A DNA stretch of 64,000 nt. Origin: a virus. The translations under genes and the position numbers were made by a program. This document shows, piece after piece, positions 31,204 to 49,036 of this stretch. Position 1 is the stretch's first letter; the number at the start of each line of letters is the position of its first letter. The stretch lies in IMG/VR virus record IMGVR_UViG_3300033148_006102, positions 32,001 to 96,000 of that record, one strand, 5' to 3'. Under the pieces are notes generated by a model. The model did not search any database, was not told where the DNA came from, and saw only the letters and a program-made list of their open reading frames with translations.

Positions 31204-33198
31204 ATGGCGTTCACGTTACTGGCGGACCAGTTCAATCTGCCGGCTGAGGATTTTATCCGGACGATTGTGCAAGAGCGGTTCCCTACGCTTGATGTGCGTA
31301 AGGGTACGGCGCTATATCGTTTGGTGATTAAGCCGGCTGCATTGCTCATTGAGCCGTACAGGCGCATGCAGAATGTCTTGCGGCGTAACCAGACCATTCT
31401 CGCATTCGAAGATATGCTCGAGTACGAGTTGGATCAGTTGATGGCGAACTATTTTATAGATCGCCGCACATCCAGCACAGCCACAGGCATTGTACGTGTA
31501 TACGTTTCGGAAGCTGTGGAATTGGCTATTCCTCTTTCAGCACGTTTCTCAACCAATACAGGCTTGATCTTTCAGCCGTCATCACCTGTTGTAGCTACAG
31601 CGGCTGAACTGTTACTCAATGAATCTGGTGGATATTACTACGCGGATGTGCCAGTAATTGCGGAAGCACCTGGCGCGGATTACGTAATTGAATCAGGGAC
31701 GATTGTTAACTTCGAAGGCGTGAGCGCTGATTTCGTTGACAATCCTTCGGCTACTGCAGGCGGTCAGAACATTGAGTCAAACAGCGAACTTGTGGAGCGC
31801 AGTCGCGGCACGATTGCGACGCGCACACTTACATCCGAGAACGGCATTCGCGCCACGTTGCTCGATAACTTTGATTCGGTAACGGGCGTAGATGTTATCG
31901 GTTATCTGGATGCAGAGATGGAGCGGGATGTCATCCAAGCGGTGACCAGTTTCCGGGAACTGTTCGGCGTCCGGTTTGCGCGAAAAGTCAACGTATGGGT
32001 TGATCCGACTACGAATTTACCCACATCAAGCCCAACCGGTGTATACAAGGCTGCCATTATTGATGTGCAGAATACGTATGCAGATTCGTTGCAGGTAGGC
32101 GACCCGTATTTCTTCCACAAACTTGAAGTGGATGCGGACACTGTTGAGTCATACGAGTACAGTGTTCAGCGTGGTGATATGGTAGTTATCAGCACAAACG
32201 GCGGCTCGGTTGATGACGGCCGATACACGGTGCTGAATGTAATCTTTGGTGTGTGGAAGTCCGGTGAGGCAAATACACATTTCTTGCTGCTTGACGGTGT
32301 GTTCGCAGATACGGCTTTTGATGCAGTCACACCGAACAACGCGGATTTCACCAAACACGAATATACGATTGAGTCATCTGTGCGAGTGGATGAGTTTCAT
32401 GTGGGTGGCAAGGCCGACATCTACGTAAATTCTACGAATATTTCAGAGCAGGTGATTCAGATCCCACAGGTGACTACTGTGACAGGTTCGTCGCCGGCGC
32501 GGATGATTGATATACCGATATCTGCTATCCCTGTGACGTATTCAGATGTGGGCGCCACTACGTTGGGCAGCACGTCGCTGTATGAGGACTCACAGACATT
32601 CCTGTTACCGTTTCTGGACATCGTGTCGATCGAGGTTATTGACTTTTCGAATGCAGCTTTGGTATTGCGTACGCTGGATCGCGGAGCAGACTATACGTTC
32701 ATTACTCGCAATCCGGATACTCGATTCACTGAGCAGGAAGATTCGTTCATTCGTTTACTGGACGATTCATTGGCGACCAGTGGTGCACGACTCAAGATTA
32801 CGTATCAGACGAACTCAGATATTCCGACGATTCAGGCTTTTGTGTCAGATCCGGAGAATCGTGACACGACCGCGGATCTGCTTGTGCGCAGCGTGAAACC
32901 TATCCAGGTTGATTTCCTCATGTCGTATGCGGGCACGCCGACTATTGATGAAGTGACAGGATTACTCGAGGCATACGTTGAATCACGGCCGCAAGGTGGA
33001 ACGATTCGTGCTAGTGATGTGGTAGCTTTCCTGCAAGTTTTTGGAGTCACGTCTGTTACGTTGCCGCTCACAATGACCGCGGTATCGTTCGCTGACGACG
33101 GTAGTATTGAAAGCCAGGTAAGTACAAATAGCATATCTATTGGCGTCCGCGAGATTTTCCAGTTGAGCGCGTCTCAGCAGATCACTAAGCTCGAATAG
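31204..33198 (+). CDS. baseplate J-like wedge protein
   Basis: LDVRKGTALYRLVIKP, ARFST...F, VIAEAPGADYVI, VDNPSATAGG...ESNSELVER pattern. Confidence 0.8.
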   Translation: MAFTLLADQFNLPAEDFIRTIVQERFPTLDVRKGTALYRLVIKPAALLIEPYRRMQNVLRRNQTILAFEDMLEYELDQLMANYFIDRRTSSTATGIVRVYVSEAVELAIPLSARFSTNTGLIFQPSSPVVATAAELLLNESGGYYYADVPVIAEAPGADYVIESGTIVNFEGVSADFVDNPSATAGGQNIESNSELVERSRGTIATRTLTSENGIRATLLDNFDSVTGVDVIGYLDAEMERDVIQAVTSFRELFGVRFARKVNVWVDPTTNLPTSSPTGVYKAAIIDVQNTYADSLQVGDPYFFHKLEVDADTVESYEYSVQRGDMVVISTNGGSVDDGRYTVLNVIFGVWKSGEANTHFLLLDGVFADTAFDAVTPNNADFTKHEYTIESSVRVDEFHVGGKADIYVNSTNISEQVIQIPQVTTVTGSSPARMIDIPISAIPVTYSDVGATTLGSTSLYEDSQTFLLPFLDIVSIEVIDFSNAALVLRTLDRGADYTFITRNPDTRFTEQEDSFIRLLDDSLATSGARLKITYQTNSDIPTIQAFVSDPENRDTTADLLVRSVKPIQVDFLMSYAGTPTIDEVTGLLEAYVESRPQGGTIRASDVVAFLQVFGVTSVTLPLTMTAVSFADDGSIESQVSTNSISIGVREIFQLSASQQITKLE

Positions 33199-33255: not shown

Positions 33256-33535
33256 AGCCTTTCATCTGGGATGATGCCAAAATCCCATTGATATGCGGCA
33301 TAAGACTATGAGAATTTGGTTTCTATGTCCAACTATCCTGTTGATGTGAAACCGAGAGTAAAAACTTTACTGCAATGGGGGAGCCGCACCGCGGCTTTTT
33401 GACACAACGGAGCCGCGAGTACTGGCGAACGCTGTATTAGTCGGCTTCCTGGGCATGGTGGTCTGCCGCAATTGGCTCAGTTTGCTCAACGCACAGACTC
33501 ATAAACCCGTGTACCCGTTTGTCCGTGACGTCTTA

Positions 33536-33904
33536 ATGGCCTCGGACGGTTTGCCACAAGAAATTATTGATGACTGGGTTGAGGCCATTTCCTTTGAAGA
33601 GTTGTATTGTCCGGATGCACAGGCCTCGGGACATCTAATCGATAATCTTGGTGAGATTCCAGTCGATACACCATTGCGTAAATTCGAAGAGGCGCTGCAG
33701 CACCGACTACACACCGCTCGTCATAGCTTGGAATACGCAATGACGCATCTCACGTCCGAGGATGTTCGCAAGCTTACATGCGGTCTGTATGTTGAGCTCC
33801 GCAAGGACTACGACATTCATCAGTATTACATGCGACCACCGGAAGAAATAAACCCGGAAGAGGGGATGCCGTTGCCGCTTGGAACGTTGCCACCAGACTG
33901 GTAA
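33536..33904 (+). CDS. hypothetical protein
   Basis: ORF; start uncertain (33455 or 33536). Confidence 0.55.
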   Translation: MASDGLPQEIIDDWVEAISFEELYCPDAQASGHLIDNLGEIPVDTPLRKFEEALQHRLHTARHSLEYAMTHLTSEDVRKLTCGLYVELRKDYDIHQYYMRPPEEINPEEGMPLPLGTLPPDW

Positions 33905-33923: not shown

Positions 33924-33952
33924 TTGATTCTTGATGCTATCACAGATACCTT
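33924..33952 (+). promoter_or_regulatory. sigma70-like promoter of tRNA unit 1
   Basis: TTGATT-N17-TACCTT; same -10 as the promoter at 49967. Confidence 0.6.
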
Positions 33953-33966
33953 TACGTCTTACTGTA

Positions 33967-34107
33967 ATGGATAGCTTTTGCTACATGTTGCGGATGAGAC
34001 CAATGCGTTTGATAAGACAAGCCGAACCGAAAACGACACCAGTCACCCATAATATGGGTCGACAGGTGATTGATTTCGCGTGGAAGGATCCCGGCCGGTT
34101 TGCTTAA
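33967..34107 (+). promoter_or_regulatory. leader peptide ORF 1 (46 aa; alternative ATGs at 33985, 33994, 34003)
   Basis: MDSFCYMLRMRPMRLIRQAEPKTTPVTHNMGRQVIDFAWKDPGRFA*; last codons overlap the antiterminator strand. Confidence 0.65.
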
Positions 34108-34166
34108 AAGACGCTGAACATAGTAGCGCAAACCGGCGGGAACTCAAAAGCCCGCCGGTTTCTTTT
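34094..34166 (+). terminator. mutually exclusive antiterminator/terminator (attenuator 1)
   Basis: GCCGGTTTGC (34094-103) pairs with GCAAACCGGC (34128-137); AAACCGGCGGG (34130-140) pairs with CCCGCCGGTTT (34151-161), followed by a U-tract. Confidence 0.8.
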
Positions 34167-34171
34167 TGACA
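34161..34171 (+). promoter_or_regulatory. boxA-like variant
   Basis: TCTTTTTGACA, followed by ACTTTGTGA. Confidence 0.45.
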
Positions 34172-34200
34172 ACTTTGTGATCACCGGGAGCAGCATTAGA

Positions 34201-34283
34201 TCAGGGCAACCTTCGGGGTGAAGGAGCGGGCTGTTAACCCGTCGTGAGAAATCACATGCTGGGTTCGACACCCAGGCCCTGAG
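34201..34283 (+). tRNA. trnN: tRNA-Asn(GUU), long variable arm, no encoded CCA
   Basis: TCAGGGC/GCCCTGA acceptor, GCGGG-CTGTTAA-CCCGT, CTGGG-TTCGACA-CCCAG, G73. Confidence 0.75.
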
Positions 34284-34286
34284 CCC

Positions 34287-34314
34287 TTGAACCCTCCTCG
34301 CAGAATGTTATAGT
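34287..34314 (+). promoter_or_regulatory. promoter for HNH gene
   Basis: TTGAAC-N16, extended -10 TGnTATAGT. Confidence 0.5.
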
Positions 34315-34342: not shown

Positions 34343-34888
34343 ATGGGAACATCGCAGCATGTTAAAGATTGGCGGGCGCGAACAAAGGCACGGATGGTCG
34401 CGGCAATGGGAGGCGCATGTGTTTGTTGTGGTTACGACACGTACGAGGGAGCGCTGCTTTTTCATCATCGAGATCCGAGCACGAAAGATTTTTCGTTGAG
34501 CGGAGTTCGAATGAATCCGAAGAAGTGGTCACGGATTGTCGAGGAACTGAGAAAATGTGTGCTCGTTTGTTGGAACTGCCATATCGAGTTACATGCGGGC
34601 TTACGAAACATACCTGTAGGTGCGGCGGGCTTTGATGAATCGTTTGCCGATTATCGGGCAGAACAACGGGCGAAACTTTTTGATACGTGTCCTGTTTGTG
34701 GGGATAGAAAACGTAAACGACGGAAGTACTGTTCCATCGCATGTAGCCATGAAAATAAAAAGCGTGTATCTGATGAACAATTACGCGCAATGGCAGAACA
34801 AGGAGCAAACTATTCGCAGATAGGACGCGAGTACGGGATTTCTGGAAATGCTGTGAAGAAACGACTGGAGAAATTAAACGGGGTGTAG
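34343..34888 (+). CDS. HNH endonuclease with zinc finger and C-terminal HTH
   Basis: CVCCG...FHHRDP...CVLVCWNCHIELH; ANYSQIGREYGIS. Confidence 0.85.
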   Translation: MGTSQHVKDWRARTKARMVAAMGGACVCCGYDTYEGALLFHHRDPSTKDFSLSGVRMNPKKWSRIVEELRKCVLVCWNCHIELHAGLRNIPVGAAGFDESFADYRAEQRAKLFDTCPVCGDRKRKRRKYCSIACSHENKKRVSDEQLRAMAEQGANYSQIGREYGISGNAVKKRLEKLNGV

Positions 34889-34953
34889 TTCAGAGGAAGA
34901 ACGCCGTGTTTGGGACGCGGAGGCCGGGATTTCAAAATTCCCCACCCCGACCA
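34879..34953 (+). tRNA. trnP: tRNA-Pro(UGG)
   Basis: cloverleaf, TTTGGGA loop, CCA end. Confidence 0.9.
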
Positions 34954-34962
34954 CTTGAGGAT

Positions 34963-35040
34963 GCCTAGCGAGGCCGAAGTAGTCGAGGCACTTGGTTGTG
35001 GTCCAAGGGGAAGTGGGCGCAAGTCCCATCGCTAGGCCCA
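34963..35040 (+). tRNA. trnH: tRNA-His(GUG) with G-1; atypical T-loop CGCAAGT
   Basis: CTTGG-TTGTGGT-CCAAG, C73, CCA end. Confidence 0.85.
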
Positions 35041-35050
35041 GATTGAAAGA

Positions 35051-35124
35051 GCGCCTGTAGTTCAATGGAAGAATGACAGCCTTCCAAGCTGTAGACGAGG
35101 GATCGATACCCTCCAGGCGCTCCA
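35051..35124 (+). tRNA. trnG: tRNA-Gly(UCC)
   Basis: ACAGC-CTTCCAA-GCTGT, U73, CCA end. Confidence 0.9.
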
Positions 35125-35135
35125 GCTCTTTGACA
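35125..35135 (+). promoter_or_regulatory. rrn-type boxA
   Basis: GCTCTTTGACA; no -10 element at promoter spacing. Confidence 0.55.
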
Positions 35136-35158
35136 TCTGAAACGGCCAAACAAAAAAC

Positions 35159-35228
35159 GGGCGTAGATACAGGCTCGATGCCTGTCCTTTCCCGGTTGGG
35201 TAAGGTAGCTTAACGCAAAGCGACGCCC
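35159..35228 (+). ncRNA. circularly permuted, anticodon-less tRNA-like RNA (YrlA-like topology)
   Basis: order: GGGCGT, T-arm ACAGG-CTCGATG-CCTGT, capped acceptor-like stem, TA plus D-arm GCTT/AAGC, ACGCCC. Confidence 0.55.
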
Positions 35229-35233
35229 TTTTC

Positions 35234-35307
35234 GCCGCTCTAGCTCAAGGGCAGAGCGCCACTCTCGTAAAGTGGAGATCCCAGTTCGACTCTGGGGAGC
35301 GGCTCCA
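35234..35307 (+). tRNA. trnT: tRNA-Thr(CGU)
   Basis: CCACT-CTCGTAA-AGTGG, CCA end. Confidence 0.92.
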
Positions 35308-35333
35308 AATTTCTTTTACATGAAAGGATAATT

Positions 35334-35522
35334 GTGGATTTGGTGACGAAAGAAGACGTAAACATCGACTTCGCAGAGGAAACAGAATTTCAGCTGCAGC
35401 TACTCGACCACCGCGTTGCGCCTACGTTGGTCGTCAAGCGCGGTGGTGACATCGTCCTGATCAAGATTTCGAAGGCCAAGGCCGAAGAGCTCTTGAAACT
35501 GGACATTACGGTAGAGGGATAG
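35334..35522 (+). CDS. small hypothetical protein
   Basis: GAAAGGA before GTG; last base of stop is tRNA G1. Confidence 0.55.
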   Translation: MDLVTKEDVNIDFAEETEFQLQLLDHRVAPTLVVKRGGDIVLIKISKAKAEELLKLDITVEG

Positions 35523-35595
35523 CCACTATAGCTCAAGGGAAGAGCACTCGCTTGGTACGCGGGCGATCTCAGTTCGACTCTGAGTAGTGGCTCCA
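35522..35595 (+). tRNA. trnT: tRNA-Thr(GGU)
   Basis: CTCGC-TTGGTAC-GCGGG, CCA end. Confidence 0.92.
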
Positions 35596-35615
35596 CATCA
35601 TTATGAAAGGGATCG

Positions 35616-35799
35616 ATGATTGAACGTGAGCGGGAAATTGAAGAACGTTTCTTGTTAACACAAATGACCAGCGAAGTTGGCAAAACGATGGCGACGCACA
35701 TAACAGTAGGAGCCATTCAAACGGTCGAACAGCTGAAGGAACAGTTTTGCGAATACGTAGACTCGTGTTATGCAAATTTTCGCTCAAAGATAGGAGTAC
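35616..35799 (+). CDS. hypothetical ORF with no stop before tRNA-Thr(UGU); frame continues to 36152
   Basis: GAAAGGG before ATG; frame open through the tRNA. Confidence 0.4.
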
Positions 35800-35874
35800 G
35801 CCAGCGTAGCTCAACGGCAGAGCTTTCGACTTGTAATCGGAAAGACGTCGGTTCGAATCCGACCGCTGGCTCCA
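35800..35874 (+). tRNA. trnT: tRNA-Thr(UGU)
   Basis: TTCGA-CTTGTAA-TCGGA, CCA end. Confidence 0.92.
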
Positions 35875-35891
35875 AACTTGAAAAGGACGGA

Positions 35892-36152
35892 GTGGAATAC
35901 AAGGTTGGCGATCGCGTCATCATGGCCGGTCGCGGAATAAACGAGATAGTAGAACTTCCGAATCCGCCCGAAAAGACCACAATCACCCTGCTGTCACCGA
36001 GTGGTCAGGTATGGTGGGCCGGAGTTGAAGACATTGTGCGATTCCCTGAGAAAGAGTATTACGATCAGTTTATAGCAGATTCGGAAAGACTTGATCTTTG
36101 GGGTGTACCCGCTTTGTACAGATGGCGGGACGAAACATATCCGGAAACGTAG
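35892..36152 (+). CDS. small hypothetical protein (KOW-like YKVGDRV)
   Basis: AAGGA before GTG; stop is tRNA-Phe U8-A9-G10. Confidence 0.5.
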   Translation: MEYKVGDRVIMAGRGINEIVELPNPPEKTTITLLSPSGQVWWAGVEDIVRFPEKEYYDQFIADSERLDLWGVPALYRWRDETYPET

Positions 36153-36221
36153 CTCAGTTTTGGTAGAGCACCGGCCTGAAGAGTCGGGTTGTCGCCGGTT
36201 CGATTCCGACCGGTTCCACCA
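36143..36221 (+). tRNA. trnF: tRNA-Phe(GAA)
   Basis: CCGGC-CTGAAGA-GTCGG, CCA end. Confidence 0.9.
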
Positions 36222-36292
36222 ACTTCCGACATGGACAGTTTTCCCGCTATATTGATGTAGAGGGAAAACTGTCCTTTGTTCGGGAGAATAAC

Positions 36293-38821
36293 ATGCCTGA
36301 TGCTGATCTCAGCCTGATCCTGAAGGGAAGTCGTGAAGTACATACGGCTTACCAAATCCAGATCATTTACGACGGCTTGAATGCGACACAACAAACTGCT
36401 GCAGCCACGCTGTTGGCAGAATACGGCATAAATGCCACAAATATCACGGCGACGAGTGCGCCGTTGGATGATATCGAACGCGCTCTGCAAACTATGTTGG
36501 CGACATTTATGGGAACTGCAGCTACAGGCTCAGGACCAGGTGTCGCTGACTTGGCGGCCTTGAAAGCGATCATTGCAGGTGATCGTACAGACAAGGACGT
36601 GCGGCTAGTCGAATCAGTAGGGTTAACCTATCGTTTCGATGCTGACAGCATTGTGGATCCTACAACAGATCCTGACATTGAAATTCCGGATGACGTTACG
36701 CATCCAGCCCCAGGTCGCTGGTATCTGGTTGAACTGGATGAAGCTGACGAAATTCTGTACGTCAACACAGCGAGTTGGCTGACGGCCACGCATATGCAAG
36801 CGGCTGTCGACGAATTGGCACCGGTGATGCATTCGCCAGTTGCAGATATTGCTGGATTGACGGCGATTGTCGCAGCTTCGCGTGCAGACAGGATGCTGGC
36901 CTTTGTTGATGATCAGAATCGTTTGTATAGTTTTGATGCTGCGGATACGACAGATCCGACTACGCGCACAGACATGGAAATTCCTGATGACGTGACGCAC
37001 CCAGCGCCAGGTCGTTGGATTCGAATGGCGTATCATGCATCTGAGCATGAAAACGGCGGTGTTGATGAGATCAGTGTTGCCGGTCTTAGTGGCCTCTTAG
37101 CAGATGACCAGAATCCGGTTAATCACGCAACTGATCACCAGCATGGCGGCAGCGATGAAGTCGCAACTGCCACACCTGGCGCCAACGCTATTCCGAAGGC
37201 AGACGCATCTGGCTTGCTTGATGGCTGGATCACACAGGCTTGGGACGCGATCGTCGTGGGCACTAACACGGCGGCTACGGATAAGACCAATATTGATGCG
37301 GCTATCTCAGCTGTATCTGCTGGGTCAGGCGATCGTAAGACCATCCTGTTGATGGGACGGTTTGCACTCGGTGCTAATGTGTTCGCGGCAGCGGATTACA
37401 TTACTTTCAATGCTGAGCAAGCATATTTCCGCAAGACTGCAGACAACGCTGGTACGATTTACTTCACCGGTACTGAAATGGTTATGCTCGGCGGTTTTGT
37501 CGAGAACGCCGGTTCATCGTCTAGCGGTGGTTTCTTTGGTGGTCATAAGTGGGAAGGCGGCTTTGTTCTTAGCTGGCCAGCCGCAACACTTATTTCAACT
37601 TCGCAGACCTATGCGCAGTTATCATACCGCGCACAGAGCGGCCTGCCTGTTTCGATATCTGGGGCGGGTTCACAGATTACCGCGAATTATGTAAACGGCG
37701 CAACAGCACCAACCAATAGTTCTTGGGATGTCGCCGCTTCGTCTGGAACGATCACACTTTCTGGCGATAACGTTAATTATCGTAATGGTGGAGGCGGCCC
37801 AGCTGTTGTGGTTTCAGGCTCGGGATCATACTGGCGTGGTAGAGCAAGTGGCGGTATTACAGTAACAGGTACGTATTCGCATGTTGAGGTACCGAACGGT
37901 GCTGCGACATGTAGCGTTACGCAATCTGGCCAAGAAAGCTTTGTAGACGTTCGAGCATCAACTGGCGCAATAGCGCTGAGTGGTATCAATATCACAACGC
38001 GCATCCAATACACTGGTTCCACAGTGTCATCTTTCACGAATACCGCGTCGGATTCAGATATTTTGGTTCGCATGCGTTACCTCGGTAATGCAGTAAATAT
38101 CGCGTTGGGTACAAGAAACACGTACTCGCTGCTCGTGCGGGATACAGCTGGTGGTACAGCTGATACTCTAACGCTGTTATCAGGTACGGACTGTCCAGAA
38201 GCTAAGATTCAGACAGTTCAGCCGACAGTTGATATCGGTGGCGCATCTTTGACAGGCTGCTCCATGACGGTGATGGCTACTGCAGCAGGCGCAGCGGTAA
38301 CAGCCAAGAATGGCTCAGTCGGTAACACGATTGACATTTATTGCGATACGCAGCCGACAGTCGAGGCAGACGCGGCACTTGAGAACACAATTCGTTGGTA
38401 CGACACTTCTGCCCGCGGTATCCTTCGGATGGCGTGGGAGAAGGGTCGCCTGTACCAGACCAAGGAAGAGCTCATCGACTTTGGTGGTACCGGTGCGAAG
38501 AACACGACTATTCAGGTCGACGCGAACGAATGGTGCGAAGGTGTACCGTTGGTTATCGAAACCATTGTTGCGGGTACAAACCCAGGAGCACCGACACAGG
38601 TTGTACCGACTTGGAATGCTGGCGGTATGACAGATCCAACACCGATTGCAGGTGTTGCGGTCAATACGAAGAGTACAGCAGATCTCTTCGAACAGTCTGC
38701 AGCAGCAGCTACTTTGAATCTTGATCCACAGACCGGCGGTGCAGCCTCTGTGGTTGATGCGACCGGCAAGGTGCGGGTCCGTTTCACAACCATCAGGAAT
38801 CTGGCAATGCCGGACGAATAA
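36293..38821 (+). CDS. 842-aa fibre/virion-like protein with internal repeats, inside tRNA array
   Basis: duplicated EIPDDVTHPAPGRW module; HxxxHxxGGxDE repeats; beta-helix-like Ser/Thr/Gly-rich region. Confidence 0.7.
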   Translation: MPDADLSLILKGSREVHTAYQIQIIYDGLNATQQTAAATLLAEYGINATNITATSAPLDDIERALQTMLATFMGTAATGSGPGVADLAALKAIIAGDRTDKDVRLVESVGLTYRFDADSIVDPTTDPDIEIPDDVTHPAPGRWYLVELDEADEILYVNTASWLTATHMQAAVDELAPVMHSPVADIAGLTAIVAASRADRMLAFVDDQNRLYSFDAADTTDPTTRTDMEIPDDVTHPAPGRWIRMAYHASEHENGGVDEISVAGLSGLLADDQNPVNHATDHQHGGSDEVATATPGANAIPKADASGLLDGWITQAWDAIVVGTNTAATDKTNIDAAISAVSAGSGDRKTILLMGRFALGANVFAAADYITFNAEQAYFRKTADNAGTIYFTGTEMVMLGGFVENAGSSSSGGFFGGHKWEGGFVLSWPAATLISTSQTYAQLSYRAQSGLPVSISGAGSQITANYVNGATAPTNSSWDVAASSGTITLSGDNVNYRNGGGGPAVVVSGSGSYWRGRASGGITVTGTYSHVEVPNGAATCSVTQSGQESFVDVRASTGAIALSGINITTRIQYTGSTVSSFTNTASDSDILVRMRYLGNAVNIALGTRNTYSLLVRDTAGGTADTLTLLSGTDCPEAKIQTVQPTVDIGGASLTGCSMTVMATAAGAAVTAKNGSVGNTIDIYCDTQPTVEADAALENTIRWYDTSARGILRMAWEKGRLYQTKEELIDFGGTGAKNTTIQVDANEWCEGVPLVIETIVAGTNPGAPTQVVPTWNAGGMTDPTPIAGVAVNTKSTADLFEQSAAAATLNLDPQTGGAASVVDATGKVRVRFTTIRNLAMPDE

Positions 38822-38834
38822 TAGAGGATGAACG

Positions 38835-39080
38835 ATGGCAGTAACAAGAGATGATGTGGTCACGAAGTTTGACGCACTTCCTGACACCGGTACCATTCGC
38901 GCCCTCGGTTCGGACTACAACATTGTCTGTACCAAGGACGAGGAAACGCCGGCGAACCCTCCGCTGATCGTGGCGGTACAACCACTTGATGGCAGCACGC
39001 ATGTCTTTCTTCAGCATCAGAATGATGATACGCCAGAACCATATGTCGAAGGACCTTGGGAGGCGTTAATTACAGCGTAA
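38835..39080 (+). CDS. hypothetical protein
   Basis: GAGGA before ATG; coupled to next gene. Confidence 0.6.
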   Translation: MAVTRDDVVTKFDALPDTGTIRALGSDYNIVCTKDEETPANPPLIVAVQPLDGSTHVFLQHQNDDTPEPYVEGPWEALITA

Positions 39081-39630
39081 TGAATTCATTCTTTACTGCG
39101 GATCTCCATTTGGATCACGCGAAGATACTACGGCCGGACTTTTGTGCCCGGCCGTATTCTTGTGTAGAGGAAATGAATGAGGCGTTGATCGCGAATTGGA
39201 ACGACCGCGTTACCAAACATGACCAGATATACATACTTGGCGACGTTTCATGGGAGAAACGCGCGATAGAGCATGTACAACGATTAAATGGTCAGAAGTT
39301 TTGATCATAGGTAATCATGATCGAAAGCTACTACCAAAGTACAAGAAGTCAGGCCTATTCCAGTGGGTAAAACCGCTGCACGAAATCAAGGTCGACGACC
39401 AGAAGATTGTGCTTTGTCATTACTCCATGCGCACATGGAATCGTATGCAGCACGGATCCTGGCATTTATTCGGCCATAGTCACGGAACGCTCCCGCCGCA
39501 TGGTAAGTCATTCGATGTAGGCGTGGACTGTTGGAACTATGCGCCGGTCTCATATGAAGAAGTAAAACAAAAGATGGACACACTCGAGATAATATCAGTT
39601 GATCACCACAGACCAAAAGAAGGAGAATAA
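39080..39630 (+). pseudogene. calcineurin-like metallophosphoesterase with a 1-nt frameshift at about 39300
   Basis: ADLHLDH and LGDVS in one frame; GNHD, LCHY and HLFGHSH in another; break at AAG-TTTT-GATC. Confidence 0.8.
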
Positions 39631-40021
39631 CTTGGCAATAAAACTGAACCAATTTCAAAACGGTCGACAGCGAGAGCATACTGTATCGATTCGCACTATC
39701 ATGGAACGTGCATTGGCGCGGACCGAAGATCAAACGCCTTTTCTAAGGGGTGTGCTGTTGTTAGATAAAGAATGGCGACAGATCTGTACAAAGCTGGACT
39801 ACATTGATGCTGCGCTAGCAGCGGCGGAACGCTACGAAGCTTCACTCAATGATAGCAGTCAAACGGCGGAAGATATGATGTTTGAAGCTTTGCGCGAACG
39901 TCTACCCAGCGATGTTGTCGACATGATGGAGTCGGTCACGCCATTCCGCAAGGATGGCAGTACACCGGCAGTTGAGGCAGTTGAGAAACTGGGAAAGTTT
40001 GTAGACAATGCGAAGCTTTAA
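39599..40021 (+). CDS. hypothetical protein
   Basis: ORF; start may be TTG near 39632. Confidence 0.55.
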   Translation: MITTDQKKENNLAIKLNQFQNGRQREHTVSIRTIMERALARTEDQTPFLRGVLLLDKEWRQICTKLDYIDAALAAAERYEASLNDSSQTAEDMMFEALRERLPSDVVDMMESVTPFRKDGSTPAVEAVEKLGKFVDNAKL

Positions 40022-40208
40022 GCAATGTGTTGAAGAATACAAACAAAATCATGCCTGTTTTTGCCTATATTGCGGTCACGACGAGCTGATAGTTCAAGAG
40101 CGATCTGGTCCTAAGATCGAGATGAAACAGCTTGTGACGTGCCCCAAGTGCAAGAGGGCCTGGTGGGAATACTGGGGCTTGATCAGTGTTGAAGAAGCGC
40201 TAGCATGA
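40008..40208 (+). CDS. small zinc-ribbon protein
   Basis: CLYCG...CPKC. Confidence 0.6.
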   Translation: MRSFKQCVEEYKQNHACFCLYCGHDELIVQERSGPKIEMKQLVTCPKCKRAWWEYWGLISVEEALA

Positions 40209-40283
40209 GGCCTCGTCGTCTAATGAACAGGACACTACCCTCCGAAGGTAGAGATCCAGGTTTGAGTCCTGGCGGGGCTACCA
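40209..40283 (+). tRNA. trnR: tRNA-Arg(CCG)
   Basis: CTACC-CTCCGAA-GGTAG, CCA end. Confidence 0.88.
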
Positions 40284-40297
40284 ATTGAAAGGAACAG

Positions 40298-40783
40298 ATG
40301 AAGATTTTGCCCAAGCCATATGATTGGGATATATGCATGCTTGAGATGGCGGCCACACTCGCCAAGATGAGCAAAGATACGTCGACACAGGTTGGCGCAC
40401 TGCTTGTCAGCCCTGATAAGCGGCGCATGTCAGGAGGCTACAACGGCTTTCCGACGAACATTCCCGATTATGAGGACTGGTGGAATCGACGCGAAGACAC
40501 AGAAGGTGAATTTACCAAGTACGAGCTGGTGGTCCATGCTGAGGAAAACGCCATCTGCCAAGCGCGTACGGATCTCACGGGCTGGACGCTGTACTGCACG
40601 CATCAACCATGTCTTCGGTGTTCAAGGTTGATAGCTTCGCAAGGTATTCGACGTGTTGTATGGGATGCGGGTCATGAGGTGACGCGCATGGATCTACAAA
40701 CAGAGAAGGCGCTGAAGCTTTTCGAAGAAGCGGGAATCGAAGTACACACGATTCATTACCGGGATACATATAAGGGGGCGTAG
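40298..40783 (+). CDS. dCMP deaminase (ComEB/T4 cd-like)
   Basis: SKDTSTQVGA, GYNGFP, HAEENAI, PCLRC zinc motifs. Confidence 0.9.
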   Translation: MKILPKPYDWDICMLEMAATLAKMSKDTSTQVGALLVSPDKRRMSGGYNGFPTNIPDYEDWWNRREDTEGEFTKYELVVHAEENAICQARTDLTGWTLYCTHQPCLRCSRLIASQGIRRVVWDAGHEVTRMDLQTEKALKLFEEAGIEVHTIHYRDTYKGA

Positions 40784-40851
40784 CTCAACGGAATTAGAGC
40801 GCTGGTCTACGGAACCAGAGGTTGAAGGTTCGAATCCTTCCGTCCCTACCA
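40774..40851 (+). tRNA. trnR: tRNA-Arg(ACG)
   Basis: CTGGT-CTACGGA-ACCAG, CCA end. Confidence 0.92.
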
Positions 40852-40984
40852 TCTTGAAAGGAAACTGTGGAGAAGCAGGAAGTTGTAATCAAAGTAGTTG
40901 AAAAGGGTGGCAGCGGAATAAGTATCCTGTCGCTGCTTGGCATCGCCGGCGTACTGCCAAGCAGTATGGTTGGTATCAGTAATT

Positions 40985-41058
40985 GGCCACGTCGTCTAAT
41001 GGAAGGATACCAGGCTTTCAACCTGGAGACCGGGGATCGATACCCCGCGTGGCTACCA
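40985..41058 (+). tRNA. trnE: tRNA-Glu(UUC)
   Basis: CCAGG-CTTTCAA-CCTGG, CCA end. Confidence 0.88.
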
Positions 41059-41076
41059 ATTTCACAAGGAGAAGGA

Positions 41077-41262
41077 ATGGCAGAAGAATATGTGACATCG
41101 TTGGTGGACAAACCATCGATTGATATTACTGCACCAAAGGCAGTACAGATCGATATTCGTGAGGATGGGAAGGTGCTCTGGATCAACGTGGACGGGATCT
41201 GTCGTTTACGTTGTTGTCAGATTGAGCTCCTTGAAGTTGAAGACAGGCGAACGAAGAAATGA
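41077..41262 (+). CDS. small hypothetical protein
   Basis: GGAGAAGGA before ATG. Confidence 0.6.
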   Translation: MAEEYVTSLVDKPSIDITAPKAVQIDIREDGKVLWINVDGICRLRCCQIELLEVEDRRTKK

Positions 41263-41567
41263 AGATGTATATTTTGGTCAAGGAGGATGTGCGCTTAGGC
41301 CTTGCCGCCGTAAGTATCGCGCACGCTGCCATGGCCGCCTATTTGGCATACAAAGACACGCCAGAAGTAAAAGAATGGCTCGCCGGTCCTTTCTACAAAG
41401 TTGTGTGTAAAGTGACTGCGCAAGAGATGGAGCAGGCTAAGGACGCCGGGGACTATGTCAGGATCACAGATTCAAACTATGCGGATGGGACTGTGATAAT
41501 TGCACTGGCATTCAAGCCGCGGGAAGAATACCCGAAGGCGTTCAAATACTTCAAGCTTTTCAAATAG
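41259..41567 (+). CDS. pth2: peptidyl-tRNA hydrolase, Pth2 family
   Basis: KMYILV...AAVSIAHAA...EWL...KVVCKV...ITD...ALAFKP. Confidence 0.8.
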   Translation: MKMYILVKEDVRLGLAAVSIAHAAMAAYLAYKDTPEVKEWLAGPFYKVVCKVTAQEMEQAKDAGDYVRITDSNYADGTVIIALAFKPREEYPKAFKYFKLFK

Positions 41568-41642
41568 GTCGCGTGGCGCAACAGGGAGCGCATCAGCATG
41601 ACACGCTGAAGGTTAGAGGTTCGATTCCTCTCGTGGCCACCA
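41567..41642 (+). tRNA. trnV: tRNA-Val(GAC)
   Basis: TCAGC-ATGACAC-GCTGA, CCA end. Confidence 0.88.
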
Positions 41643-41656
41643 AATTTGAGGAAAAC

Positions 41657-41905
41657 ATGCTAGAACCACAGAAGACAAAACACATCAAAGAATACCCAGT
41701 CACCATAGAAACCATATTTCCTTTGGATACGTTTGACGTGCGATGGACAGAAGGTCCGGCGACGCAGCGCGTAAAGATTCGACAGGTAGAAACAGGAATC
41801 TATTTGATGTGCGACAACGATGTGCGCCCGCTCGAGGTCACAATTCCTTGGGAACGATTCTTCAATAAAATTGAAGAGCTCGTATTATCGAGCAAGCCGA
41901 TATAA
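41657..41905 (+). CDS. hypothetical protein
   Basis: GAGGA before ATG. Confidence 0.6.
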   Translation: MLEPQKTKHIKEYPVTIETIFPLDTFDVRWTEGPATQRVKIRQVETGIYLMCDNDVRPLEVTIPWERFFNKIEELVLSSKPI

Positions 41906-41981
41906 GCCCGCATAGCTCAACTGGGAGAGCGCCTGACTTACATTCAGGAGGTTGGGAGTTCGAAACTCTCTGTGGGCACCA
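41906..41981 (+). tRNA. trnV: tRNA-Val(UAC)
   Basis: CCTGA-CTTACAT-TCAGG, CCA end. Confidence 0.92.
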
Positions 41982-41982
41982 T

Positions 41983-42060
41983 GGCCGCATCGTCTAGTCT
42001 GGCTCAGGATACTGCCCTCTCAAGGCAGAGACGAGGGTTCAAATCCCTCTGCGGCTACCA
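41983..42060 (+). tRNA. trnE: tRNA-Glu(CUC)
   Basis: CTGCC-CTCTCAA-GGCAG, CCA end. Confidence 0.9.
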
Positions 42061-42078
42061 CAATTTTGAGAAAGGAAA

Positions 42079-42154
42079 AGCCCCGTAGCTTAATTGGAAA
42101 AGCGTCCGCCTCCTAAGTGGTCAGATCTCGGTTCGACTCCGGGCGGGGCCGCCA
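42079..42154 (+). tRNA. trnR: tRNA-Arg(CCU), A1:C72 mismatch
   Basis: CTCCTAA loop, T-arm TTCGACT, GCCA end. Confidence 0.8.
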
Positions 42155-42159
42155 ATAAC

Positions 42160-42435
42160 ATGACACACAAATTCATCAAAGAAAAAATAGAACCAAAACT
42201 TGCGGAGCTTGAAGCGAAGTTTCCGCGACGTTCAAAAGTGAGAGTGCGGAGCGCGCCTTGGGAATACCCGCATTGGCAGCGCATAGGGCACGTAGTTGAC
42301 TATGACGTGCGACACAGCGCAAATGATAGTTTGCGTGGTGTGATCAAGATTGTCGCACAGGATGTAGATCCTTGGTATGCATGGGAAGAGGATGTTGAGA
42401 TTCTTTGGGATGCGCCATCTGGGACTTTACCATAA
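42160..42435 (+). CDS. hypothetical protein
   Basis: ORF between tRNAs. Confidence 0.55.
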   Translation: MTHKFIKEKIEPKLAELEAKFPRRSKVRVRSAPWEYPHWQRIGHVVDYDVRHSANDSLRGVIKIVAQDVDPWYAWEEDVEILWDAPSGTLP

Positions 42436-42444
42436 TCACAGAAT

Positions 42445-42520
42445 GCCGCTGTCGTTCAACGGAATAGGACATCCGCCTTCTAAGCGGAGAATCGGGGTTC
42501 GAATCCCTGCAGCGGTACCA
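42445..42520 (+). tRNA. trnR: tRNA-Arg(UCU)
   Basis: TCCGC-CTTCTAA-GCGGA, CCA end. Confidence 0.9.
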
Positions 42521-42521
42521 G

Positions 42522-42593
42522 GGCACACCCGCATGGTGCGGACTTGCCTCTCATAAGGGCAAAGATTGAGTTCGATTCTCAGGTGTGCCACCA
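42522..42593 (+). tRNA. tRNA with CAU anticodon (Ile2 or Met), reduced D-arm
   Basis: GGCACAC/GTGTGCC acceptor, CTCATAA loop, CCA end; no U8. Confidence 0.75.
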
Positions 42594-42684
42594 AATTTCT
42601 CTTGCAACGGTGAATCGGCATAATAGGATTCACGCAGGACTTTATTTTGCCGGAACAGTCCGCCGGCTTACAAAGGAGATCGCA

Positions 42685-44082
42685 ATGATGCATCACAGTA
42701 ACTGTGTGGTCACGCTCTGTGACCAGGACAACCGCCCATTCAGAGAATACAGCCACCACCGCGAAGGCGACGCCTCTCGCGCTAAGGTTAGTATTTCGTA
42801 CGGAACTGAGTACAAGTTCATGTTCCGTATCAGGGACCATCTTCGCCGGCGCGTCGAGTTCACGATCGACGGGTCGCAGGTAGGCGAGCTCATCTTCGAG
42901 GGTAACTCGCAGACCTATCTCGAGCGCTTCATCGACAGCGCACGCAAGTTCAAGGTCGTACATCCGGAGAGTAGCGAGTGCCAGGATCCGGGTAATCCGA
43001 AGAACGGCCAAGTCGAATTGACGGTATGGACAGAGAAGGCGCCGCCTCCGCCACCACCAAGGCCTGCGCGGCGTGCATTCCGCAGCCGTGGTATCACGGG
43101 ACAGACCATAGGTTGTTCTGGTATGAACAGCCCCGTCTTTGGTTCTTCTGCAGGCTCACTGGGATCCGCAGGTCCTGAATATGAGATGTTGACCAACGGC
43201 GCGGCCGCAACAGGCGAGGGCGGTTACTCGAATCAGGAATTTGGGTCGACTACCTGGCGCGGCGACGCAGGTGAGCCGATTACCTTCCAGTTCAAGATTA
43301 TGGGGAAGGAAGATGAGCATGCGCCGAACAGTAAGTTCTTCTACTGTGCGAAGTGCGGTGATCAGGTTCCTGTAGGCTCTAATTATTGCGGCAGGTGTGG
43401 TGCGCATATAGCAAGCATGAATCCTGACGGGTGCACGATTCATCTCGGCATCGTGCTTGATGAGTCGTCATCTATGGAAGGCGACTGGGATATGACGATC
43501 GACGCGATCAACGAGTATCTCGATACGCTGCAGGGTGACGACCACCGATACAGGGTCTCGATCACAGCCTTCAATACGGTGAGTCGTCCGGTCTTTCATG
43601 CGACGGATCTGACGAAGGATGTCCGGATAAGTCGGCACAACTACCGGCCTAACGGTATGACGGCGTTGTACGACGCGATCGCGGATGGTATCGGTAGCCT
43701 CGAAGACAGCGTATGGGATTATGACGGCAAGGCCATGCTGGTGATCATGACAGATGGCCAAGAGAATAGCTCCAGGAACTTCAGCCTTGACCGGATCCGT
43801 AAGTTGATCTCGAGCAAAGAACGCGATGGCAACTGGACGTTTGTCTACATGGGATCGCACAACGATGCTTGGAAGCATGGCAGCGCGCTCGGAATTAGTA
43901 AGGCGAATGTCATGCAGTTTGATCAGGCACAGGCGCAGCCGTTGATGCGCGCGTTTGGTGCAAGTACGCAGGCATATGCCAGCAGCGCGGATGCAAACTC
44001 GCAGGCCATCTTCGCGTCGAATAAAGCGGATTACAAGAATATCGGCGCAACGGCGATAGACGATCATAAGGCGGATTGTTAA
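42685..44082 (+). CDS. fusion protein: N-terminal beta domain, double zinc ribbon, vWA domain
   Basis: CAKC...CGRC; LDESSSM MIDAS, TALYDA, MTDGQEN; AAGGAG RBS. Confidence 0.85.
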   Translation: MMHHSNCVVTLCDQDNRPFREYSHHREGDASRAKVSISYGTEYKFMFRIRDHLRRRVEFTIDGSQVGELIFEGNSQTYLERFIDSARKFKVVHPESSECQDPGNPKNGQVELTVWTEKAPPPPPPRPARRAFRSRGITGQTIGCSGMNSPVFGSSAGSLGSAGPEYEMLTNGAAATGEGGYSNQEFGSTTWRGDAGEPITFQFKIMGKEDEHAPNSKFFYCAKCGDQVPVGSNYCGRCGAHIASMNPDGCTIHLGIVLDESSSMEGDWDMTIDAINEYLDTLQGDDHRYRVSITAFNTVSRPVFHATDLTKDVRISRHNYRPNGMTALYDAIADGIGSLEDSVWDYDGKAMLVIMTDGQENSSRNFSLDRIRKLISSKERDGNWTFVYMGSHNDAWKHGSALGISKANVMQFDQAQAQPLMRAFGASTQAYASSADANSQAIFASNKADYKNIGATAIDDHKADC

Positions 44083-44154
44083 CGTTTTCCGGCCCCAAAG
44101 CATAAGTAGTGACGGGCTCTTGACTTTGTGATGCACCTGTGTTTTACTCGGCGC

Positions 44155-44637
44155 ATGAAAAAGTTCAAGAGCCCAGCTAAGCACCAAACACCGTTATATC
44201 GAGCACGATGTGCGTATCGTGATATGTCACGTCGTTGCGGCAATCCTAACGGAAAGAATCCAGCATATGTTGATGTTGAACTCCGAATGACGATGGAAGC
44301 ATGGCTGGAGTGGTCGCTGCCGCATTACGAAAAGTTTATAGCTGAAAACCCCGGTGTGTCGCCAAGCGTATCGCGTAACGGCGATGTAGGTCATTATGAA
44401 ATCGGGAACCTGGAAATCGTGTCTTTACAAGAAAATCGTCGACGACAGAAGACGAAGTTGTTGGTGCGACCAAACGGTACGAAGCTTTGTTGTACGTGCA
44501 GGGTGGTGCAGCCAAAAGAAAATTTTTGTAAGAACAGAACACGCGCAGATGGCTTGAATCACGAGTGTCGTAGCTGTCGCGCCATTCGTGTGCGTGAATG
44601 GCGCGCAAAGAAAAAGAAGGCTCCTACTCCTAGATAG
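44155..44637 (+). CDS. HNH-like homing endonuclease with C-terminal zinc finger
   Basis: AYRDMSRRC.NP...SVSRNGDVGHYEIGNLEIV...EN; CCTC...CRSC. Confidence 0.7.
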   Translation: MKKFKSPAKHQTPLYRARCAYRDMSRRCGNPNGKNPAYVDVELRMTMEAWLEWSLPHYEKFIAENPGVSPSVSRNGDVGHYEIGNLEIVSLQENRRRQKTKLLVRPNGTKLCCTCRVVQPKENFCKNRTRADGLNHECRSCRAIRVREWRAKKKKAPTPR

Positions 44638-44693
44638 CGAGGAACCTGTCTCTTAAACAGGGAAGCGGCGTGCAAGTCGTCGAGGAGCCACCA
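44619..44693 (+). tRNA. trnK: tRNA-Lys(CUU), T-loop TGCAAGT, no U8
   Basis: GGCTCCT/AGGAGCC acceptor, CCTGT-CTCTTAA-ACAGG, CCA end. Confidence 0.8.
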
Positions 44694-44701
44694 ACATATA
44701 A

Positions 44702-44776
44702 GGGCTCATAGTTCAATTCGTAGAACAGCTGACTCATAATCAGCCGATCTCGGTGCAAATCCGGGTGAGCCCACCA
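44702..44776 (+). tRNA. tRNA-Met(CAU), elongator-like (Met or Ile2); T-loop TGCAAAT
   Basis: GCTGA-CTCATAA-TCAGC, CCA end. Confidence 0.85.
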
Positions 44777-44798
44777 TCGCTTTCCTTGAAAGGATGGG

Positions 44799-45263
44799 AT
44801 GTCATATACATACGAAACTCTTGTTGAAGTTCAATGTTATAAGTGTGGGATTCGCTTTGGACTGATCCAGAGCTATTACGATCTGCGGAAGCGTGATAAG
44901 AAAGAGTGGTATTGTCCGAACGGCCATACACAGTATTTCATAGGTGAAACTGCTGAACAACGGTTACGCCGTGAATTGCGCGCGGAGGAAGCAAAACACA
45001 GGAAAACCAAGCAAACACTGAAGACACAGCAGACAAGGACTGCAAATTATAGGGAAGACAACGACGCTAAGGATCGCCAGATGATTTCCTTGCGTGGCAC
45101 GATAACCATGTTGCGCCGATACATGAAGGATGGTAAATGTCCGTGTTGTCACAAGACAGTTGATGATTTACCGGGGCATCTAAAAGAAAAGCATCCCCAT
45201 TTCATGGCGCCGGTGCAACCCAAGAAAGAGAAGGAATGCCAAAACCAGAACAAGAACGAGTGA
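44799..45263 (+). CDS. zinc-binding coiled-coil protein
   Basis: CYKCG...CPNGH; CPCC...HLKEKH. Confidence 0.7.
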   Translation: MSYTYETLVEVQCYKCGIRFGLIQSYYDLRKRDKKEWYCPNGHTQYFIGETAEQRLRRELRAEEAKHRKTKQTLKTQQTRTANYREDNDAKDRQMISLRGTITMLRRYMKDGKCPCCHKTVDDLPGHLKEKHPHFMAPVQPKKEKECQNQNKNE

Positions 45264-45508
45264 ACCTCAAACTGGAGCTGACAGGCCTGCGGGAGTGCGA
45301 TGCGGTCAGTATTGTCAAGCTGATGTGCATGATGAACTACTTCGGCTCGGCCGGTTGCTCGCGAACCATCAAGCTGTTCGTGGACGGCGACGGCGCATTT
45401 AATTTCGGTCGCGTGCTGGTCGACGGCGAGGAAGTATCACGCAAGGAGCGGCTGAAGCTGATTGGGGAATATGACAAGGAAGATGGGCTGGACTTCGCGT
45501 TCGATTAG
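45236..45508 (+). CDS. hypothetical protein
   Basis: GAAGGA before ATG; last base of stop is tRNA G1. Confidence 0.65.
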   Translation: MPKPEQERVNLKLELTGLRECDAVSIVKLMCMMNYFGSAGCSRTIKLFVDGDGAFNFGRVLVDGEEVSRKERLKLIGEYDKEDGLDFAFD

Positions 45509-45584
45509 GGAGCGTGGCGCAATGGTATAGCGCATCGGTCTTTTAAACCGAGGGTTGTGGGTTCGAGTCCCACCGCTCCCACCA
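45508..45584 (+). tRNA. trnK: tRNA-Lys(UUU)
   Basis: TCGGT-CTTTTAA-ACCGA, CCA end. Confidence 0.93.
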
Positions 45585-45585
45585 T

Positions 45586-45660
45586 TGGCGCGTAGTGTAA
45601 TTGGGAACACGGCAGACTCTGGATCTGCAGTAGAGGGTTCGATTCCTTCCGCGCCAACCA
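45586..45660 (+). tRNA. trnQ: tRNA-Gln(CUG)
   Basis: GCAGA-CTCTGGA-TCTGC, U1-A72, CCA end. Confidence 0.92.
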
Positions 45661-45695
45661 AATTTATGGCCGTTCAGATGGACGGAGAAAGGAAG

Positions 45696-46289
45696 ATGAT
45701 GAAGCGGAACGTACTATTGTTAAACAAGAATTGGCAGCCGATCGCGTCGGCGCCGTGGAGAACTGCGGTAAAGATTGTGATTCGCGGCCATGGGTACGTC
45801 GTGGATCATCGAACTTTTGAACGCTTGGATTGGGTAGCTTGGGTCGCTACGCATTCGGCCGGTATCGATGCGGATGTAGACCGGAGGAGATACATCCAAA
45901 CTGGTGTACGGTTAATCGAATGTCCGAAAGTAGTGACCCTTGCCCGATTCGGCGGTTTACCCAAGCGTCGCCTGGCGTTCAGCCGTAACGGCATTTATGC
46001 CAGAGACAGCCATCGTGGTAAGCCGCAGTGTCAGTACTGCGGATCTTACCCAACTGGTAGAAGCCTGACGTTGGATCACGTTATCCCGCGGGCGCAGGGC
46101 GGAAAGACGCAGTGGGAGAATTGTGTTGTGGCCTGCGAAAAATGCAATATGCTCAAAGCAGATCGCACACCAGAACAAGCAGGCATGCGCCTGTTGAGTA
46201 AGCCTAAACGGCCAGAAGTTTTCCAAGCGTTGCTTGGCGAACTCGAACCGGAATGGGAAGTGTTTGTGAAGCAAGGAAATACAGCATGA
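45696..46289 (+). CDS. HNH endonuclease (HNH_5/McrA-like)
   Basis: VLLLNKNWQP...CQYCG...LTLDHVIPRAQGG...WENCVVACEKCN.LKADRTPEQAGM. Confidence 0.9.
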   Translation: MMKRNVLLLNKNWQPIASAPWRTAVKIVIRGHGYVVDHRTFERLDWVAWVATHSAGIDADVDRRRYIQTGVRLIECPKVVTLARFGGLPKRRLAFSRNGIYARDSHRGKPQCQYCGSYPTGRSLTLDHVIPRAQGGKTQWENCVVACEKCNMLKADRTPEQAGMRLLSKPKRPEVFQALLGELEPEWEVFVKQGNTA

Positions 46290-46471
46290 ATGGGACTGAG
46301 CTGAGAGAATACATACGGAAGCAGGTCCGCAGGTTCCATTACATGAGCCTGTGGGATCTTGTCAGTGAACGAAGTAGCCTACCCAGAAATGGAATGCTAC
46401 ATCGAATCCTGGGACACGTGATTGATTACCGACTCTTGGAGTCGGCGCGACAAAGAGCAGGTACAACGTAG
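46286..46471 (+). CDS. small hypothetical protein
   Basis: ATGA overlap; stop overlaps tRNA-Trp 5' end. Confidence 0.5.
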   Translation: MNGTELREYIRKQVRRFHYMSLWDLVSERSSLPRNGMLHRILGHVIDYRLLESARQRAGTT

Positions 46472-46541
46472 GTCGGGCGCTGGGTCGCAGGACGGTCTCC
46501 AAAATCGTCCTTGGTGGGTTCGATTCCCACCCGGCCTGCCA
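46470..46541 (+). tRNA. trnW: tRNA-Trp(CCA), reduced D-arm
   Basis: AGGTCGG/CCGGCCT acceptor, CTCCAAA loop, G73, CCA end. Confidence 0.82.
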
Positions 46542-46558
46542 ACAATTTTGGAGGTAAC

Positions 46559-46759: not shown

Positions 46760-46818
46760 GACTGTGTAAGGGCAATCTTATGTGGGATGGCCCGTAATGT
46801 AACGGCTAGCACATGGAA

Positions 46819-46893: not shown

Positions 46894-46907
46894 AAAAAGG
46901 AATAGCG

Positions 46908-47399: not shown

Positions 47400-47435
47400 C
47401 TTTCTTTTGAATCTTTCGTCAAAGGAGAACGAAGA

Positions 47436-49031: not shown

Positions 49032-49036
49032 GAATT

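Follow-up and report, generated by a model that had tools for sequence, protein, structure and literature searches.

Genomic setting

The window analysed here is a stretch of 64,000 nt, bases 32001–96000 of a 195,108-bp phage contig from IMG/VR that has direct terminal repeats at its ends. G+C content of the phage genome is ∼50% and its + strand carries nearly all genes. The leader that is the subject of this report is preceded by a baseplate-J gene and an orphan open reading frame (ORF), and followed by 28 tRNA genes called by ARAGORN, spanning 34879–52969, among which lies a module of Ro60, YrlA-like RNA and tmRNA genes. The flanking features are:

31204–33198, baseplate-J gene (Pfam PF04865), 0.7 kb upstream of the leader
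33455–33904, orphan 149-codon ORF, ending 20 nt before the leader
34199–34284, + strand, tRNA-like RNA with a GUU (Asn) anticodon loop, first gene 3′ of the switch described below; 33.3 bits with the Rfam tRNA-Sec model, below the gathering score
34287–34314, + strand, sigma-70-like promoter TTGAAC-16-TATAGT with an upstream TG, preceding the HNH-like gene
34343–34888, + strand, HNH-like gene
34879–36221, + strand, first tRNA block (ARAGORN), Pro(UGG), Gly(UCC), Thr(CGU), Thr(GGU), Thr(UGU), Phe(GAA); could depend on readthrough
36233–36274, + strand, terminator-like hairpin following tRNA-Phe, −26.4 kcal/mol, tail TTTGTTC, the strongest of the region
47436–49031, + strand, Ro60/TROVE protein gene
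49038–49180, + strand, YrlA-like RNA directly 3′ of the Ro60 gene, 64.9 bits against a gathering score of 69
49363–49759, + strand, tmRNA, uncalled by ARAGORN
49906–49946, strong terminator 3′ of tmRNA, −25.6 kcal/mol

In the Asn-like tRNA, missed by ARAGORN, the acceptor stem has 7 bp, the discriminator is G, the variable arm is long (GTGA-GAAA-TCAC) and CCA is not encoded. With it included, ARAGORN and Rfam give 22 tRNA genes before a second leader near 50276 (leader 2), where a first-pass annotation of the sequence had counted 24. In the 257-nt gap 3′ of the baseplate-J gene, a short terminator-like hairpin was found by eye at 33379–33403 (+ strand; AGCCGC-ACC-GCGGCT, then TTTTTGA), so that the late structural transcript may stop upstream of the 149-codon orphan ORF.

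Elements of the leader

The leader contains the following elements, in 5′ to 3′ order:

33924–33952, + strand, weak sigma-70-like promoter candidate, TTGATT (33924–33929)-N17-TACCTT (33947–33952)
33962–33993, + strand, 5′ hairpin, which in the folds buries ATG 33967 and ATG 33985
33967–34107, + strand, leader ORF from ATG 33967 to TAA 34105–34107, 46 codons
34017–34027, + strand, segment 1 (anti-antiterminator), paired with strand A in the minimum-energy fold
34028–34078, + strand, long imperfect hairpin, enclosed by the pairing of segment 1 with strand A and lying within the stall window defined below
34091–34103, + strand, segment 2 (strand A), a near-copy of the terminator 3′ arm overlapping the last four ORF codons
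34128–34140, + strand, segment 3 (strand B), common to the antiterminator (with strand A) and the terminator 5′ arm
34151–34167, + strand, segment 4 (terminator 3′ arm) and tail CTTTTT

A recount confirmed 35 distinct codons and the full set of 20 amino acids in the ORF, as described earlier. The last ORF codons do overlap, as had been noted, a decamer that pairs perfectly over 10 bp with the 5′ arm of a perfect 11-bp U-tailed terminator. This terminator, AAACCGGCGGG (34130–34140) and CCCGCCGGTTT (34151–34161) followed by CTTTTT, has a 10-nt loop and a predicted energy of −19.7 to −20.3 kcal/mol; a consensus terminator scan accepting loops of 3–8 nt missed 34130–34161 only because of the loop of 10 nt. 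The core of strand A, GCCGGTTTGC (34094–34103), is covered by the codons GGC CGG TTT GCT and pairs with GCAAACCGGC (34128–34137); beyond a G-G mismatch, C34091-C34092 can give two extra G-C pairs with G34139-G34140. Strand A and the terminator 3′ arm form a direct repeat, 10/11 identical and 60 nt apart. All three elements were independently recovered by repeat finding (I4, I6 and the direct repeat D8), which counts in favour of an attenuator.

The promoter-like site reported earlier is present, with a correction as to its quality: TTGATT-N17-TACCTT agrees with the sigma-70 consensus at 7/12 positions and falls under the threshold of the promoter scan, which counts against an attenuator. By our own arithmetic a match of this quality is expected by chance about once per 570 nt per strand. 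Transcription is predicted to start at about 33959–33961. TACCTT was considered as a genome-wide −10 motif and rejected, its 47 copies on the + strand being the chance level.

Folding and chance expectation

The leader folds with −85.7 kcal/mol (z = −6.6), and none of 200 shuffles was as good, an argument for an attenuator. The minimum-energy fold pairs strand A not with strand B but with ∼34017–34027, which closes a domain holding the hairpin 34028–34078, and the terminator forms; together, these pairings supply the four segments of a trp-type attenuator. The energies compared were:

Terminator alone, −20.3 kcal/mol
A:B antiterminator (10 + 2 bp), −25.3 kcal/mol
Whole leader, terminator state, −78.3 kcal/mol
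Whole leader, A:B forced, −74.3 kcal/mol

The last two values make termination the predicted default, a further point for an attenuator, and it is the anti-antiterminator (1:2) that sets it. The predicted terminator is a G+C-rich hairpin with a U tract ahead of genes; the antiterminator, exclusive with it, uses the same 5′ arm and is no less stable; and the ORF is so placed that segment 2 would be freed by a stalled ribosome but covered by one at the stop codon.

As an internal control, 137 terminator-like hairpins were collected from both strands of the 195-kb phage genome. Only three, this one included, have a perfect upstream complement of at least 10 nt to the 5′ arm, which again speaks for an attenuator. 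The alternative A:B pairing is more than chance, and the folds indicate that the tRNA island is headed by a terminator/antiterminator/anti-antiterminator switch. No upstream complement of this kind in the genome is longer than the perfect 12-nt one of another terminator-like hairpin, at 52819–52861 (+ strand) in the gap between tRNA-Ser and tRNA-Cys (complement and hairpin within 52795–52861).

Other RNA identities were tried for the leader. T-box and known riboswitch families were rejected, the Rfam search having matched none at E up to 10; the antiterminator moreover has a single mismatch only and no 7-nt bulge of the T-box kind. A Y RNA or YrlA identity was rejected, as the leader ends do not pair and the YrlA-like RNA lies elsewhere, at 49038–49180. 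boxA-like antitermination was set aside as well, the resemblance at 33974–33985, judged by eye, being weak.

Possible translation of the leader ORF

The ORF spans segment 1, and its TAA at 34105 starts 1 nt past strand A, a placement that favours an attenuator and that we estimate to have a chance probability of ∼0.05. We moved a ribosome footprint along the ORF and folded the leader with the footprint masked. With the A site at about 34009–34078 (the stall window) the antiterminator is favoured at equilibrium by 1.6–3.5 kcal/mol, a small preference that counts against an attenuator; for the same positions the antiterminator would also be the first to form during transcription. Stalls before ∼34009 favour the terminator by 4–12 kcal/mol, and near or at the stop codon the terminator is favoured again because strand A is covered and A:B is impossible. 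This dependence on the stall position is itself an argument for an attenuator.

The possible starts differ in accessibility (probability of being unpaired, P) and in the energy of the duplex with the anti-Shine–Dalgarno (anti-SD) sequence, here given with two genes for comparison:

ATG 33967, duplex +1.2 kcal/mol, P 0.09–0.24
ATG 33994, duplex +1.5 kcal/mol, P 0.81–0.84
ATG 34003, duplex −3.3 kcal/mol, P 0.65–0.74
HNH-like gene, 34343, duplex −12.6 kcal/mol
Leader 2, 50276, duplex −6.4 kcal/mol

Judged by these duplex energies, no SD stands ahead of any of the in-frame starts 33967, 33994 and 34003 (34003 having little at best), a point against an attenuator. ATG 33967 moreover lies ∼7 nt away from where transcription is predicted to begin. 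The accessible ATG 33994 and 34003, which count for an attenuator, give 37 and 34 codons, respectively, and if the ORF is translated they are the most likely starts on the folding evidence. A frame starting at GTG 34080 and running through the terminator was rejected, its SD-like AGGTGA being buried in the long hairpin.

Codon content of the leader ORF

The first-pass annotation had taken the ORF for a codon sampler and proposed comparing its diversity with null expectation. Having all 20 amino acids in 46 codons gives P ∼0.01 against genome codon usage, real gene windows and the 279 small ORFs of the genome, and P = 0.025–0.027 against random sequence of uniform or local composition. At least 35 distinct codons give P = 0.02–0.04 against coding nulls and 0.16–0.18 against random sequence; the excess is not a clear one. 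We regard as decisive a control in which the non-coding frame 3 of the same stretch was read: 36 of its 46 triplets are distinct, including a run of 25 all different. Diversity is hence a property of this non-repetitive stretch and not of the reading frame, which counts against an attenuator, and a deliberate all-codon sampler is not supported. The longest all-different run in the ORF itself, 27 codons (P = 0.002–0.009), was discarded as support for a sampler, this statistic having been chosen post hoc and being nearly equalled in frame 3.

The ORF has the exact codon for 15 of the 20 downstream anticodons, against 10.8–11.4 expected (P = 0.02–0.05), which favours an attenuator; in correction of the earlier list of cognates, neither ARAGORN nor Rfam finds a tRNA-His downstream. 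GAG, AGG and GGA are missing from the ORF, as reported. The stall window contains 24 different codons for 16 amino acids, among them ACG, ACA and ACC, exact matches to the three Thr anticodons, and CCA, AAT and TTC, which also match the first block. By our own count, 7 of the 24 window codons match first-block tRNAs, where ∼20% was our estimate of expectation; the difference is not significant.

The full set of 20 amino acids requires ATG 33967, which is paired and without an SD, and from which Ser, Cys and Tyr are codons 3, 5 and 6; stalling there favours termination, and this part of the earlier reading is not supported. From ATG 33994 there is indeed no Ser, Tyr or Cys codon and one Leu only. 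The nominal P for this depletion is 0.006 with the start picked post hoc, and 0.14 from ATG 33967. The ORF has no run of regulatory codons, a further point against an attenuator. With 24 codons and 16 amino acids in the stall window, a sensor here would be broad and not specific, as in the whiB7 upstream ORF (uORF) discussed below.

Genes that the switch could gate

The first-pass annotation had the leader gating the entire unit of 24 tRNAs, Ro60 and tmRNA. Two features intervene: the promoter-like site 34287–34314, a better match than 33924–33952, and the hairpin 36233–36274, likely the end of the gated unit. From these, the switch would gate at most seven tRNA genes (the Asn-like one and the six of the first block) along with the HNH-like gene, and the Ro60/YrlA/tmRNA module would be outside its control; gating of the entire unit is not supported. 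Most of the first block could also be expressed independently from 34287–34314, and the presence of this site downstream of the switch counts against an attenuator.

The same site has a second aspect. In transcripts coming from upstream, an inverted repeat (34289–34305/34324–34340, + strand) would keep the strong SD in front of the HNH-like gene, AAGGAGGG, paired. The promoter sits inside the 5′ arm of this repeat, and its own transcripts would leave the SD free. This arrangement resembles the control of homing-endonuclease genes in T4.

Leader 2 and neighbouring RNA

Leader 2 (50276–50341, + strand) is a 21-codon ORF, MKTLLSYSSLYLCLSGAEVGV, with a fair SD (GGAG 8 nt upstream) and followed by a terminator at 50371–50396; it contains 12 consecutive Leu, Ser, Tyr and Cys codons. 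It had been proposed that the two leaders divide the sensing between them. No competing antiterminator appeared in the leader 2 folds, where the terminator 50371–50396 forms whichever upstream RNA is masked, and the proposal is not borne out.

Between tmRNA and leader 2 lie further elements: TTGACA-N16-TACCTT at 49967 (+ strand), 3′ of the strong terminator 49906–49946; a structured RNA of ∼180 nt at 50003–50180 (+ strand), its ends paired in a long stem, with −65.1 kcal/mol and z of about −2.1 against mononucleotide shuffles; and a weak terminator at 50144–50170, just before tRNA-Met at 50185. The structured RNA may represent a leader or another Y-like RNA.

Relatives

The leader locus DNA gave no blastn match among GenBank phages, and the leader peptide no homologue in 1.84 billion representative proteins save one marginal, repeat-like match, which counts against an attenuator. 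For the neighbouring 149-aa protein, tblastn and a related-locus search found no relatives, and a search of 5.8 billion proteins returned only the query itself. The nearest baseplate-J relatives (L004, L006 and L007/G001, 39–45% identity) lack the tRNA island at the corresponding place and have suppressor-type tRNAs only; the 842-aa and 149-aa proteins show no homology to the L004 neighbours. In Vibrio phage D181 and Salmonella phage Arash, very distant phages with tRNA arrays, no comparable leader was seen at the array heads. When collections of viral and bacterial genomes were scanned for the A/B motif pattern, only chance matches turned up, in unrelated G+C-rich DNA. As the locus is absent from the relatives found, conservation and covariation lend the attenuator no support.

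Two of the baseplate-J relatives carry tRNAs with CUA anticodons (amber-suppressor type), at 15602–15676 (− strand) in L006 and 18326–18480 (− strand) in L007, one of them adjoining a tRNA with a 4-base anticodon call. These hint at stop-codon recoding in those phages, whereas the present window reads normally with table 11.

Interpretation

The proposal of an attenuator-type switch stands up in its architecture: there are three alternative pairings, and the ORF crosses segment 1 and stops 1 nt past the antiterminator strand, as in trp-type leaders. Our tentative reading, to which we give a little less than an even chance, is that the leader is a ribosome-sensed transcription attenuator of the trp type heading the first tRNA block of the 195-kb phage. 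The pairings, their computed energies and the ORF geometry are established here; that the promoter is used, the ORF translated, the terminator functional and the leader responsive to stalling is inferred. The proposed course of events is as follows. Transcription would enter from the weak promoter near 33950 or from upstream. In untranslated RNA, segment 1 (∼34017–34027) would bind strand A (34091–34103), leaving strand B (34128–34140) free to pair with 34151–34161, and the terminator would stop transcription at ∼34165. A ribosome that started at ATG 33994 or 34003 and reached the TAA would cover strand A, again with termination. A ribosome stalled with its A site at about 34009–34078 would open 1:A and free strand A to pair with strand B, and RNA polymerase would read on, to the Asn-like tRNA and at most, through the HNH-like gene and the six tRNA genes of the first block, to the hairpin 36233–36274. 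A more specific claim, that the translated leader is a broad-spectrum gauge of decoding in which a stall at any of ∼24 single codons (16 amino acids) switches on the first tRNA block, seems to us quite improbable. Anticodon-nuclease defences that cleave host tRNAs could cause such stalls, as could limits of tRNA supply late in infection.

The element could instead be a constitutive intrinsic terminator that senses nothing. The transcript it closes would be that of the orphan 149-codon ORF or of a short unit that is non-coding or encodes a small peptide; strand A would complement strand B fortuitously or as the vestige of a local duplication of the 3′ arm, and the ORF would be a chance open frame. 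A stop codon followed 22 nt on by a terminator is an ordinary gene end, strand A and the 3′ arm do form a direct repeat, and open frames of 46–58 codons have by our own arithmetic a chance of 6–11% per frame at 50% GC. The lack of a start with an SD, the equal codon diversity of a non-coding frame and the independent promoter-like site downstream fit this explanation as well. It must nevertheless accept a perfect 10-nt complement that is rare (3/137) and a leader that is extremely structured; the arm is duplicated without the B-like copy that simple tandem duplication would leave; and the 1:A pairing and the stop codon placed exactly past strand A are left unexplained. We hold it to be rather unlikely.

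Strong structure and missing translation signals would suit an RNA unread by ribosomes, with the ORF incidental. This might be a switch, a leader of ∼205 nt in which a protein, an antisense RNA or a tRNA disrupts 1:A, or else an sRNA, a stable terminated RNA acting in trans; a promoter-like site and a terminator do bound an RNA of ∼205 nt, and the island is rich in non-coding RNAs (the YrlA-like RNA, tmRNA and the structured RNA 50003–50180). We judge it unlikely. Against it, the Rfam search noted above, T-box and riboswitch families included, found no family, 1:A closes one long, plain hairpin and not a multi-helix aptamer, the antiterminator is without a T-box-like bulge, no effector can be named and the ORF geometry would be a coincidence of ∼5%.

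Comparison with known attenuators

Leader-peptide attenuators of the trp type control enterobacterial amino-acid operons (trpL, hisL, thrL, pheL, leuL and the ilv leaders). Like them, the phage leader has four segments with 1:2, 2:3 and 3:4 pairings, of which 3:4 is the U-tailed terminator, and an open frame running across segment 1 to a stop beside segment 2; termination would be the default whether the frame goes untranslated or is translated unhindered. Unlike them, it has no run of regulatory codons and no SD, its translation is only predicted, its 1:2 pairing encloses a hairpin of ∼50 nt, and the genes downstream are phage tRNA genes and not biosynthetic ones. The genes for which attenuation is known are, to our knowledge, amino-acid, antibiotic-resistance and stress genes; tRNA genes are not among them.

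In breadth of sensing, the nearest experimentally established relative would by analogy be the whiB7 (wblC) uORF of mycobacteria. The Mycobacterium smegmatis uORF encodes 19 of the 20 amino acids, and when its only Trp codon is removed it responds far less strongly to Trp depletion, so single codons suffice to sense depletion (PMC10274678), a precedent that we count for the attenuator. It is a broad-spectrum stall sensor in which stalling leads to the antiterminator and readthrough (PMC10274678). In contrast to the phage leader it controls a transcription factor, in Actinobacteria, is enriched in Ala and is established by experiment (PMC10274678). The two share no sequence relationship.

No paper on the attenuation of tRNA clusters in phages, and no published description of demand-driven control of tRNA genes by attenuation, came up in a full-text literature search. 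If the phage does read stalling to time the transcription of its own tRNAs, this would explain how a large tRNA array is deployed against codon-usage mismatch or tRNA-cleaving host defences, and would make the leader a compact natural sensor of decoding capacity. One instance does not by itself establish the mechanism; it adds a structurally clean predicted switch, in a phage without close relatives.

Other features of the window

A metallophosphoesterase-like gene at 39056–39630 (+ strand; motifs DLHLDH, GD and GNHD, by eye) appears split into two frames overlapping near 39295 at a TTTT run, which could reflect a frameshift or a sequencing error. Inside this gene, at 39129–39156, lies a stable hairpin.
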